A DNA stretch of 48,151 nt from a virus (Duplodnaviria; Heunggongvirae; Uroviricota; Caudoviricetes), in the IMG/VR virus record IMGVR_UViG_2617270976_000012, positions 1-48,151 of that record; one strand, written 5' to 3'. Every line of letters begins with the position of its first letter. Position 1 is the stretch's first letter. Of this stretch, positions 20,553 through 22,656 are shown in pieces. Under the pieces are notes generated by a model. It worked only from the letters and a program-made list of their open reading frames with translations, was not told the origin of the DNA and did not search any database. The translations under genes were made by a program, and so were the position numbers.

Positions 20553-20768
20553 ATGTACCAGATGGAAAAAATCACAACAGGTGTGTCATACACCACGTCA
20601 GCGGTGGGGACGGGCTACTGGTTCCTGCAGCTGCTGGACAGGGTTTCCCCGTCTCAGTGGGCGGCAATAGGCGTACTGGGAAGTCTGCTGTTTGGGCTGC
20701 TGACATATCTGACTAACCTGTATTTCAAAATCAGAGAGGACCGTCGTAAGGCGGCGCGGGGAGAGTAA
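20553..20768 (+). CDS. Holin, phage 21 S21-like (pinholin-type)
   Basis: 71 aa, dual-start MYQM, TM segments, C-terminus [22 protein letters not shown] matches S21 as recalled. Confidence 0.85.
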
Positions 20769-20772
20769 AGCG

Positions 20773-21117
20773 ATGAAGAAAAAATACGAACTGGTTGTTA
20801 AAGGGATAAATAATTACCCGAATAAGATTACTGTTACTGTGGCACTGGAAATTGGTGGGTATCCGTCACTGTTGTTGCCAGATGTGGCGATTAGTCTTGA
20901 CCGTACTGAAGATGCCACGCTGGAGTTTTACGAAGCTGAGGCGAAAAAGCAGGCGAAGCAGTTTTTCATGGATGTTGCTGCCGGGTTATGTGAAGGGGAT
21001 GGTCCGTTGCCGGAAAAGCGCCCCGTAATTTTAGAGGCGCAGGATGTGTTGATAACCTACAGAGGAAAACTACCGGGAATAATTACTGGTTCTCTGAAGA
21101 CTCCACCGCTGGCCTGA
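20773..21117 (+). CDS. Hypothetical protein inserted between holin and endolysin
   Basis: 114-aa ORF, no family recognised. Confidence 0.45.
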   Translation: MKKKYELVVKGINNYPNKITVTVALEIGGYPSLLLPDVAISLDRTEDATLEFYEAEAKKQAKQFFMDVAAGLCEGDGPLPEKRPVILEAQDVLITYRGKLPGIITGSLKTPPLA

Positions 21118-21167
21118 AGACTTAACATATCCAGGGATTTGAAATCGATAAACCCTGATAAATATCC

Positions 21168-21701
21168 ATGAACACCAAAATCAAATACGGCCTGTCGGCT
21201 GCCGTTCTGGCGCTGATTGCCGCAGGTGCGCCTGCGCCTGAAATCCTCGACCAGTTTCTGGATGAAAAGGAAGGTAACCACACCACGGCATACCGTGATG
21301 GCGCGGGTATCTGGACCATCTGCCGCGGTGCCATCCTGGTGGATAGTAAACCTGTCGTCCCGGGCATGAAGTTGTCGAAGGAAAAATGCGACCAGGTCAA
21401 CGCCATTGAGCGTGATAAGGCGCTGGCATGGGTGGAGCGCAATATTAAAGTGCCGCTGACCGAACCCCAGAAAGCGGGTATCGCGTCATTTTGTCCCTAT
21501 AACATTGGCCCCGGTAAGTGTTTCCCGTCGACGTTTTACAGACGGATTAATGCTGGTGACCGCAGGGGAGCATGCGAAGCGATTCGCTGGTGGATTAAGG
21601 ACGGTGGCAGAGACTGCCGTATCCGCTCAAATAATTGCTACGGTCAGGTATCCCGGCGAGACCAGGAAAGTGCGCTGGCGTGCTGGGACATCGACAGATA
21701 A
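21168..21701 (+). CDS. SAR endolysin (lysozyme family, R21-like)
   Basis: N-terminal signal-anchor-release segment YGLSAAVLALIAAGAPAP then catalytic E...D...T region (EGNHTTAYRDGAGIWTICRG). Confidence 0.85.
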   Translation: MNTKIKYGLSAAVLALIAAGAPAPEILDQFLDEKEGNHTTAYRDGAGIWTICRGAILVDSKPVVPGMKLSKEKCDQVNAIERDKALAWVERNIKVPLTEPQKAGIASFCPYNIGPGKCFPSTFYRRINAGDRRGACEAIRWWIKDGGRDCRIRSNNCYGQVSRRDQESALACWDIDR

Positions 21702-21857
21702 GCAGAATATTTTGCTGAAAAATAAGGCATGAGCACGCGGACGGATAACACGAAATCCTGCGAACTGGCGAAACGTAAGTGAATAAAAGTAAAAACCCCG
21801 TTTGTTGGCACCAAGCGGGGTTTTGTGTTTCTGACCTTGAGTAAGGCAAGGGAGAAC

Positions 21858-22040
21858 ATGGCGAAGTATAAACGAATTCTGTTGAGGTTGACCATGAAAA
21901 ACGGCCTTGAACTGAAAGCGCCTGTAACTGATGACATCAGCAGAGCACTGGCTTTTGCCATTAAGTGGGTGGCGGTCGGTGTTGCTGTGTCCCCGATGCT
22001 GTATGGGCTGGCAAAACTGGTCATTGCGTTGAAATCGTGA
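21858..22040 (+). CDS. Small hypothetical protein with C-terminal hydrophobic segment
   Basis: GGGAGA RBS before ATG 21858; 60 aa. Confidence 0.35.
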
Positions 22041-22054
22041 AGGGAGGATTAAGC

Positions 22055-22186
22055 ATGTCAGACAAACTCATAACGCTGGCGAAGATCCTCTGTGTAATTG
22101 TCGGCATTTCATTTTCACTAATGCTGGTTGCTCTTTTTCTTTCCATGGCCTGGATGATGTTGTCTTCGTCGGGGCTGCTGGGGTGA
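22055..22186 (+). CDS. Small membrane peptide between endolysin and Rz
   Basis: 43 aa [35 protein letters not shown]...; AGGGAGG RBS 7 nt upstream; stop overlaps Rz start. Confidence 0.4.
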
Positions 22187-22656
22187 ACATAAACCGAATG
22201 CTTTCCGCGTTTACCGTTATTCTGCTGGTGGTCTGTGGTGCGCTGTGGCTGGCAACAGACCATTACCGTGATAACGCCATCACCTACAAAGCGCAGCGCG
22301 ATAAAAAAGCCAGAGAGCTGGAGCTGGCAAACGCAACCATTACTGACATGCAGCAGCGCCAGCGTGATGTTGCTGCGCTTGATGCCAGATACTCAAGGGA
22401 ATTAGCCGATGCGAGAGCTGAAAATGAAACTCTGCGTGCTGATGTTGCCGCTGGTCGTAAGCGCCTGCGGATCAACGCCACCTGCTCCGGTACCGTGCGT
22501 GAAGCCACCGGCACCTCCGGAATGGATAATGCAACCGGCCCCCGACTGGCAGACACCGCTGAACGGGATTATTTCACCCTCAGAGAGCGGTTGATGACAA
22601 TGCAGAAGCAACTGGAAGGGGCGCAGGAATATATCCGCACTCAGTGTATTAACTAG
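22183..22656 (+). CDS. Rz i-spanin
   Basis: N-terminal TM then [42 protein letters not shown]... matching lambda Rz as recalled. Confidence 0.85.
22424..22594 (+). CDS. Rz1 o-spanin lipoprotein (embedded in +1 frame of Rz)
   Basis: [17 protein letters not shown] lipobox then proline-rich [27 protein letters not shown] like lambda Rz1. Confidence 0.8.

Follow-up and report, generated by a model that had tools for sequence, protein, structure and literature searches.

Two conserved small genes for predicted membrane proteins and an upstream hairpin between the endolysin and spanin genes of a lambdoid lysis cassette

Why does a phage lysis cassette of a familiar kind carry three extra small genes, and do any of them set the time of lysis? 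The question is raised by a stretch of 48,151 nucleotides (nt) from a Caudoviricetes virus (IMG/VR record IMGVR_UViG_2617270976_000012, positions 1 to 48,151), which we call the window. Its positions 20553–22656 are a lambdoid late-operon lysis cassette with an S21-family pinholin (S), an R21-type signal-anchor-release (SAR) endolysin (R) and an embedded Rz/Rz1 spanin pair, in which a 114-residue open reading frame (ORF) is intercalated between S and R and two shorter ones, ORF60 and ORF43, between R and Rz. An earlier note on this DNA had proposed that small membrane peptides here could be antiholin-like lysis timers, an idea that it would have given up had they proved not to be conserved or not to be translated. 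We find that ORF60 and ORF43 are genuine genes which, judging by their distribution among related loci, behave as parts of one mobile module headed by a hairpin, and that a role as antiholins cognate to one holin is unlikely.

Coding constraint was assessed in 143 related loci from IMG/VR and GenBank, which yielded 34 distinct DNA alleles of ORF60, all of the same length, and 29 of ORF43. The ratio of nonsynonymous to synonymous substitution (dN/dS, Nei–Gojobori) for ORF60 was 0.25 in the annotated frame compared to 0.51 and 2.8 in the shifted frames, and for ORF43 it was 0.21–0.27 compared to 0.80 and 2.2. Both genes are under purifying selection in the annotated frame only, and are thus genuine. 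Translation is supported for the ORF43 homologue of Escherichia coli O157:H7 Sakai, XECs191, which was reported as a novel gene in a ribosome-profiling study, with modest RNA and footprint signals and a single predicted inner-membrane helix (PMC5597208). Because the ORFs are conserved and XECs191 has ribosome-profiling support, neither of the outcomes that would have counted against the earlier note's idea was found.

The NCBI Prokaryotic Genome Annotation Pipeline (PGAP) lists the pair as hypothetical proteins WP_001151823 and WP_001280932. Neither protein matches a Pfam family, and their PHROG matches (phrog_1115 and phrog_4906) are families of unknown function; searches of PADLOC and NCBIfam gave no match for ORF60, ORF43, the downstream ORF74 or a 60-residue lipoprotein described below. 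In a literature search, no paper mentioned either accession or either PHROG family, and reviews of Shiga-toxin (Stx) phage lysis cassettes do not discuss the small ORFs. ORF43 is nevertheless common: tblastn placed its family in 276 phage records, mostly of Stx1 and Stx2 phages and frequently without annotation. In the RefSeq entry of 933W, for example, no gene is annotated between ant and Rz, where we find an ORF43 homologue, MISDKLITLVKSLCVLVGISFLVMLVAIFFSTAWRVLTLSGLVG, at positions 1936–2070 of locus L204 (NC_000924.1, about 27435–27569) that is identical to Sakai XECs191; the homologue in BP-4795 is ORF50. ORF60 is rarer, occurring in 14 phage records that include the plaque-forming phages PhiR12 and PhiR5. 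Its family is narrow, because an exhaustive profile search returned just 17 clusters at 50% identity, and a scan of GTDB species-representative genomes with the ORF60 alignment (A1) found no relative.

ORF43 is strongly hydrophobic and has a single transmembrane segment, as previously noted, with a Kyte–Doolittle hydropathy (KD) of 2.89 in its best 19-residue window and a short N-terminus of net charge +1. Its ribosome-binding site, described as strong in the earlier note, is GGGAGG, 7 nt upstream of the ATG. ORF60 is of a different build, with a net charge of +7 and an AlphaFold (AF2) prediction of a helix at residues 2–14, a loop and a long helix at residues 23–59. The N-terminal helix is amphipathic, with Y4, I7, L8 and L11 opposite K3, R6 and R10, and the C-terminal helix is only marginally hydrophobic (KD 1.88), about as much as the SAR domain of R, with two lysines and one proline in it. 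Common ancestry of ORF60 and ORF43, to which an hhalign comparison of alignments A1 and A2 assigned 98% probability, was rejected as an artefact of a natural fusion protein (P0093) present in A1.

ORF60 appears to have a second start. An internal ATG at 21894 (M13) would give a 48-residue form, and the sequence GAGG-N6-ATG at this codon is kept in 10 of 10 diverged ORF60 sequences; in one of them (L196) the encoded residues differ (VEVNM), yet GGAGG is kept. Among close alleles, one that is common (about a dozen loci) has GAGA and another has TAGG. Met13 itself is kept in nearly all aligned members of A1, in which 14 of the 26 rows are 60-residue proteins, and in every remote member of the family, and many database entries for ORF60 begin at M13 and are 48 residues long. 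The upstream start, with its own Shine–Dalgarno (SD) sequence, was found in all diverged sequences examined. Because both starts are conserved, each with an SD sequence, ORF60 likely has two products of 60 and 48 residues, which would differ by a 12-residue extension carrying five basic residues. The arrangement resembles the dual-start genes for λ S107/S105 and S21 71/68, in which two in-frame starts likewise give a longer product with extra positive charge at its N-terminus, but the ORF60 extension is 12 residues with five basic ones rather than 2–3 residues, and ORF60 is not homologous to any holin.

Upstream of ORF60 by 33 nt lies a hairpin that the earlier note had overlooked (21792–21824; –18.9 kcal/mol, z score –3.2). 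Of 5426 complete E. coli genomes, 1036 contain the segment comprising hairpin, ORF60 and ORF43, some of them at as many as 8 places. ORF43 directly follows ORF60 in 82 of 83 close loci (truncated in five), and these same loci vary independently elsewhere, with S at 77–100% identity, ydfR (the gene between S and R) absent or at 63–100%, and Rz at 57–100%. About 40 further loci carry ORF60 and ORF43 in an unrelated, φP27-like cassette that lacks Rz/Rz1. There the order is a Phage_holin_8 protein, a Phage_holin_3_7 protein with three transmembrane domains (TMDs), a non-SAR GH108/PG_binding_3 endolysin, two small unknown genes and the hairpin, followed by ORF60, ORF43, a 60-residue lipoprotein in the place of Rz/Rz1, an ORF74 homologue and Nu1. 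Homology between the S21-type and φP27-like contexts starts exactly at the A-tract, GC-rich hairpin and T-tract, and the hairpin is the left end of the ORF60 module. The 60-residue lipoprotein (L090, 3340–3522; L084, 3452 onward) has the lipobox LVGC, a mature part of about 30 residues with three cysteines and a match to phrog_7528; it may be a non-canonical outer-membrane disruptor.

Remote members of the ORF60 family, which by inspection of alignments have roughly 50% identity or less, extend the range of contexts. In a P2-like myovirus (L193, 3030–4600), an endolysin, the hairpin, an ORF60-like gene, genes for two lipoproteins of 68 and 70 residues and a terminator stand at the junction of tfa and the sheath gene, the Z/fun locus of P2, a known hot spot for accessory and defence genes. 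The endolysin here is cytoplasmic, with a PG_binding_1 domain, and the unit may serve either in lysis, as a second module, or in defence. A Salmonella prophage remnant has an ORF60-like gene directly before Rz; other remote relatives, which have no lysis gene beside them, follow tail-fibre genes, stand between baseplate genes or occupy a prophage end. One of the remote members is followed by a 32-residue peptide ending in LRWW. The upstream hairpin is kept in all remote members except the truncated Salmonella remnant, with compensatory changes in its stem (CCCCG/CGGGG, GCCCCG/CGGGGC and CCCCTG/CAGGGG). From these comparisons, the hairpin and ORF60, usually with a second small membrane peptide, behave as one mobile module that is found in three unrelated lysis cassettes and, in all three, lies between the endolysin and the outer-membrane genes.

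The slot between R and Rz can be filled in other ways, by ant plus ORF43, by a single 46-residue tail-anchored peptide, or by three to four tandem genes for small tail-anchored membrane proteins (L133, 2760–3365; L084, 3000–3450). Among these tandem genes are an ORF60 paralogue ending in IRWW and one for a 49-residue protein beginning MIKAETT, and hybrids between them occur (P0107 and P0093). In L133, the hairpin has no T-tract and is followed by TTGACA, 13 nt and TATAAT. The stretch of about 90 nt from the R stop codon to the hairpin (21702–21791) is conserved in S21-type cassettes, including those of BP-4795 and Stx2_EH2201, despite differing downstream genes; together with the hairpin it could form an RNA derived from the 3′ untranslated region of R, for which Rfam has no match. 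In a search of 20400–22800, no Rfam family was found, and the sole match was a sub-threshold one of the rimP leader to the hairpin.

Do these genes encode antiholins? We searched for matches of ORF60 and ORF43 to known antiholins (of the S107/S21-71 type, T4 RI and RIII, P1 LydB and P2 LysA) in Pfam, PHROG functions and NCBIfam and found none. The pair occurs both with S21-type pinholins of 77–100% identity and with the combination of Phage_holin_8, Phage_holin_3_7 and a non-SAR GH108 endolysin, and some ORF60-like genes have no holin nearby. A cognate antiholin role is therefore unlikely, because the pair is independent of holin type. The proposal that the small membrane ORFs are antiholin-like timers is not supported, with no tie to one holin and no match to a known antiholin or releasin family; a looser description as lysis-accessory membrane proteins, suggested by their position, is possible.

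The explanation that we favour, and hold to be about as likely to be right as wrong, is that ORF60 and ORF43 are expressed only late, reside in the inner membrane and have an accessory role in envelope disruption without being cognate antiholins. Since ordinary read-through would end at the hairpin, the only source of both would be the late transcript antiterminated by Q. ORF60 would insert in the inner membrane via its basic amphipathic N-terminal helix and its marginally hydrophobic C-terminal helix, probably as 60- and 48-residue isoforms, and ORF43 would insert as a classical transmembrane helix with its N-terminus inside. There, irrespective of holin type, both would assist late steps of envelope disruption as dispensable accessory factors, and ORF43 would also re-establish the coupling of translation to Rz that an insertion between R and Rz breaks.

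Several observations weigh against this explanation. What points to a role in lysis is gene position only, and many functional relatives do without the module, with Rz directly following R in the Qin prophage of K-12 and ORF60 absent from 933W. Frameshifted or truncated ORF43 alleles exist. Hypervariability of the slot, with its three to four tandem paralogues and hybrids, is commoner in conflict or accessory loci than among core lysis regulators, and remote relatives are placed near tail or baseplate genes or at prophage ends, which is as compatible with a moron or exclusion role as with one in lysis. Finally, a terminator on the 5′ side is unexplained in P2-like phages, which lack antitermination.

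In an alternative that we regard as doubtful, ORF60 and ORF43 are moron, superinfection-exclusion or defence proteins, accessory to the phage and located in the membrane, from which the lysogen or the infected cell benefits. Their action might be to block entry of other phages' DNA or trigger abortive infection, with the lysis region merely tolerating insertions. Remote members adjoining tail-fibre or baseplate genes or prophage ends, one of them at the P2 tfa/sheath site, favour this alternative, as does a slot that holds from zero to four small membrane genes, ant or hybrid genes, and the L133 hexamers beyond a hairpin without a T-tract could be a promoter. Those hexamers, however, are just 13 nt apart. 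In the window, no promoter separates the hairpin from ORF60, and in a lysogen the hairpin would keep read-through from reaching the gene; the moron layout described by Hendrix (promoter, gene, terminator) is not seen, with the hairpin lying upstream and no promoter fitting before the ATG. A candidate plus-strand promoter for ORF60, TTGAGT and TATAAA, was rejected because its hexamers are 24 nt apart. PADLOC gave no match, the pair always lies between the endolysin and outer-membrane genes in the E. coli and Salmonella loci read, and ribosome-profiling and RNA signals for XECs191 are low in uninduced Sakai.

A broader and, in our judgement, unlikely reading is that the hairpin-led ORF60 family is an unrecognised, self-mobile class of late-expressed membrane effector. 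Such an effector may be a dual-start, tail-anchored peptide, often with a single-pass partner, that inserts just upstream of genes for outer-membrane disruption in at least three unrelated lysis cassettes. It may act either as a generic regulator of lysis, like a holin or antiholin, or as a toxin kept silent by an antisense RNA whose end is at the bidirectional hairpin. If this were true, the ORF43 homologue would be a gene for lysis control that has been overlooked in 933W and other paradigm Stx phages.

Another reading, which we consider quite unlikely, is that ORF60 is itself a small holin or pore former with a dual-start motif, the 48-residue form being active and the 60-residue form, with five extra positive charges, inhibitory, so that ORF60 supplies a second permeabilisation step independent of holin type. 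The two conserved starts, each with its own SD sequence, and the five basic residues of the 12-residue extension are consistent with this idea, as are a hydrophobic helix as weak as a SAR domain and the P2-like locus, where the sole membrane protein beside the cytoplasmic endolysin is the product of the ORF60-like gene. Compared to known holin families in Pfam or PHROGs, however, ORF60 shows no similarity, and its one marginal hydrophobic helix carries two lysines and a proline. Moreover, the carrier cassettes already encode one or two holins, whereas isolated ORF60 copies have no endolysin nearby.

A further alternative is a type I toxin–antitoxin-like unit, a very improbable reading in which an antisense RNA of about 75 nt masks the SD sequence and start codon of a toxic peptide. 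The putative promoter lies on the minus strand from 21894 to 21865 (–35 TGGTCA, 18-nt spacer, –10 TATACT), and the RNA would end at the bidirectional hairpin. A promoter-like site was found here in the scan, its –10 is TATAAT in several relatives, and its spacer is 18 nt throughout; its match of 9/12 is nonetheless not above chance, with 5 sites found compared to 4.2 expected, all members have a –35 without T2, and two loci (L200 and L203) have a degraded –10. In a four-sequence alignment, the few differences in ORF60 codons 3–13 all fall in the spacer, and synonymous diversity is 0.097 in the 5′ half of ORF60 compared to 0.181 in the 3′ half, but coding constraint and the internal SD sequence explain the same conservation. 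The A-rich tract upstream of the hairpin, which would be the U-tract of a minus-strand RNA, is kept in every context, yet A-tracts often precede terminators in any case. Folding of the predicted antisense RNA gives a stem-loop at the 5′ end and then the terminator hairpin (z score –2.9), and no Rfam family matches it. As small hydrophobic peptides, ORF43 (KD 2.89) resembles such toxins and ORF60 (1.88) does so marginally.

That the small ORFs are non-functional leftovers, retained only to space the genes or to carry the Rz ribosome-binding site, is the least probable reading by our estimate and one that we disfavour: many phages do without the ORFs, truncated or frameshifted alleles occur, and ORFs with no relation to one another share an end point at the Rz junction, but purifying selection acts in the annotated frame only, motifs are common to remote relatives of roughly 50% identity or less, the pair stays together in unrelated cassettes, and the ORF43 homologue has a ribosome-profiling signal.

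Three unrelated small ORFs end at the Rz start, namely ORF43, the 46-residue peptide (ending IRWW) and ORF60-like genes ending RWW; in the Qin prophage of K-12, R itself overlaps Rz. ORF43 stays beside Rz even where ant replaces ORF60, as in BP-4795 and 933W, and its 3′ end contains the Rz ribosome-binding region. In every case of DNA inserted between R and Rz, the final small ORF reaches the Rz start. This ORF thus probably also delivers ribosomes to Rz, which would account for its position and not for its conserved peptide sequence. The earlier note had ORF43 ending in an overlap with the Rz start, and whether it does depends on the start chosen, because PGAP begins Rz at the ATG equivalent to 22198; with GTG 22183 the ORF43 stop codon (TGA, 22184–22186) overlaps Rz, and with the PGAP start it does not. 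In the region 22183–22200, relatives have ATG-AAC-CGN and the window has ATA-AAC-CGA; therefore, Rz in the window must start at GTG 22183 or ATG 22198. The first choice keeps N-R in Rz, and the second leaves no basic residue before the TMD.

Compared to characterised systems, the cassette most resembles that of phage 21 and of the Qin prophage of K-12 (essQ-ydfR-rrrQ-rzpQ/rzoQ), which has the same holin, endolysin and spanin families in the same order, including YdfR between S and R. There, however, R is followed directly by Rz, whereas the window has the hairpin and two small membrane genes between them. The cassettes of 933W and BP-4795 (S-R-ant-(small ORF)-Rz) also share the S, R and Rz families and have an ORF43 homologue immediately before Rz, but ant takes the place of the hairpin and ORF60, and 933W also lacks ydfR. 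In phage P2, lysA encodes a non-essential, timing-modifying membrane protein (about 141 residues, four TMDs) and lies between the endolysin gene K and the spanin genes lysB/lysC. ORF60 and ORF43 occupy the same position between endolysin and spanin, but they have no sequence similarity to LysA, have a single helix each and are independent of holin type. The releasin gp25 of phage Mu (DUF2730) is oriented N-out/C-in, with an anionic cytoplasmic domain of 73 residues, and its family also occurs with cytoplasmic endolysins (PMC9239132). Like ORF60 and ORF43, it is small, is tethered to the membrane with almost nothing in the periplasm, and has its gene downstream of one for a SAR endolysin; ORF60, by contrast, has a basic N-terminus and a C-terminal helix and hence another topology. 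Releasin identity was rejected for both proteins on the basis of this difference in ORF60 topology and of the missing DUF2730 match. By sequence comparison, ORF60 and ORF43 belong to no characterised antiholin, releasin, holin or defence family.

The 114-residue ORF between S and R, previously listed as unknown, is in fact a YdfR/DUF1327 protein. PGAP names it 'YdfR family protein' in close relatives, which are 96–97% identical, and the order S-ydfR-R matches essQ-ydfR-rrrQ of the Qin prophage. This slot is variable: 933W has nothing in it, with S abutting R, several IMG/VR loci have either nothing or other DNA, and a longer YdfR of 176–183 residues is sometimes found there. Hydropathy analysis found no hydrophobic segment in the 114-residue protein. 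The K-12 homologue interacts with the catalytic half of RNase E, as seen by two-hybrid analysis and co-purification, and RNA was pulled down with it (2026 study, PMC13232886). The window protein is soluble and cytoplasmic and, by homology, most likely binds the RNase E catalytic domain and RNA. YdfR is therefore not a membrane lysis timer, as it is soluble and its K-12 homologue binds RNase E and RNA.

The remaining lysis genes are conventional, and the earlier assignment of pinholin, SAR endolysin and Rz/Rz1 is correct; every ORF that it listed was also recovered in place (Table 1). The PF04971 match of S (E = 9e-33) covers profile positions 1–63 of 64. S has two hydrophobic segments, the second of which has the hydropathy of its S21 counterpart (best 19-residue window at residue 36, KD 1.70 compared to 1.72 in S21), and its N-terminus, M-Y-Q-M, lacks the lysine of S21 M-K-S-M; in relatives, PGAP chooses either start. 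R is homologous to the phage 21 SAR endolysin (3HDE, E = 2e-15), with an alignment that begins at residue 30 of both proteins. Within its first 29 residues, R has K4 and K6 and then a weakly hydrophobic, Ala/Gly-rich segment, YGLSAAVLALIAAGAPAP (KD 1.74), and MNTKIKYGLSAAVLALIAAGAPAP, with a KD of 1.74 and a summed Hessa-scale value of +5.5, qualifies as a signal anchor. On reading the sequence, the sole AxA-like site in this N-terminus has Pro after it and the catalytic triad is E35-x8-D44-x5-T50. The N-terminal TMD of Rz has a KD of 2.42. The pinholin/SAR-endolysin reading is sound because it combines the family matches, the homology to 3HDE and RrrD, and the two-lysine, weakly hydrophobic N-terminus of R, and it agrees with published surveys of Stx phages (PMC8136144, PMC10462455). 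In related loci, dN/dS was 0.14 for S, 0.09 for R and 0.43 for Rz.

Table 1. Features of the lysis cassette and its downstream flank in the window.
Feature	Position	Strand	Basis
S, S21-family class II holin (pinholin), possible dual starts Met1/Met4	20553..20768	+	PF04971; phrog_9876/phrog_20 'holin'
YdfR/DUF1327 protein, 114 residues	20773..21117	+	PF07041, E = 2.4e-45
R, SAR endolysin (R21/T4-lysozyme-like muramidase)	21168..21701	+	PF00959; matches to 3HDE, 3HDF and RrrD 4ZPU
A-tract/GC hairpin/T-tract, intrinsic-terminator-like, bidirectional	21787..21835	.	terminator scan
ORF60, small basic protein	21858..22040	+	phrog_1115, E = 2.6e-42
ORF43, single-pass membrane peptide	22055..22186	+	phrog_4906, E = 2e-23
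Rz i-spanin, start GTG 22183 or ATG 22198	22183..22656	+	PF03245, E = 7e-50; phrog_13
Rz1 o-spanin, inside Rz in the +1 frame, lipobox LVVSAC	22409..22594	+	PF06085, E = 1.5e-19
ORF74, downstream of the outer-membrane genes	22680..22904	+	phrog_2571

Of the 5426 complete E. coli genomes, 1450 carry 80% or more of the 2.5-kb cassette, which is an ordinary, very common E. coli prophage type of the phage 21/Qin/Stx-phage kind. It has two recombination-prone slots that hold accessory genes, one between S and R and one between R and Rz. Nothing in the cassette or its genes is categorically new; what is new here, descriptively, is the hairpin-led module, the likely dual start of ORF60 and an ORF43 gene that had been overlooked in paradigm Stx phages. 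If ORF43 or ORF60 influence lysis, they would be unrecognised parts of the lysis programme on which the release of Shiga toxin from Stx phages depends and would add a holin-independent class of small membrane regulators. If they have exclusion or moron functions instead, the R–Rz junction would be another accessory-gene hot spot of lambdoid phages. The practical value lies in corrected annotation (YdfR, two real small genes and a possible second ORF60 start) and in recognition of a mobile unit of hairpin and gene.

Downstream of the spanins, ORF74 is conserved just after the outer-membrane genes in both S21-type and φP27-like cassettes and is under weak constraint (dN/dS 0.71, few alleles). 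A 113-residue, lipoprotein-like ORF at 23234–23575 lies where 933W and λ have bor, and PGAP calls its counterpart in a close relative a 'TonB family protein'; a strong promoter-like site (11/12) is found on the opposite strand within this region, at 23403–23376.

Upstream, the late-operon context consists of an STnc100 leader (17475–17684), a NanS-p-like esterase, DUF1378 and DUF826, the last two as ORFs in the esterase-to-holin interval (about 19840–20550). STnc100 is a pR′-leader small RNA (sRNA) related to PasD, and the PasA/PasC sRNA genes lie between sialate esterase and holin in such prophages (2026 preprint); the known prophage sRNAs AsxR/AgvB and Pas map elsewhere in the late region. 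Matches at the Rfam gathering level comprise STnc100, three tRNAs upstream of it (16388–16634) and the sok antitoxin RNA (12061–12236), the last of which indicates a hok/sok locus in the early region.

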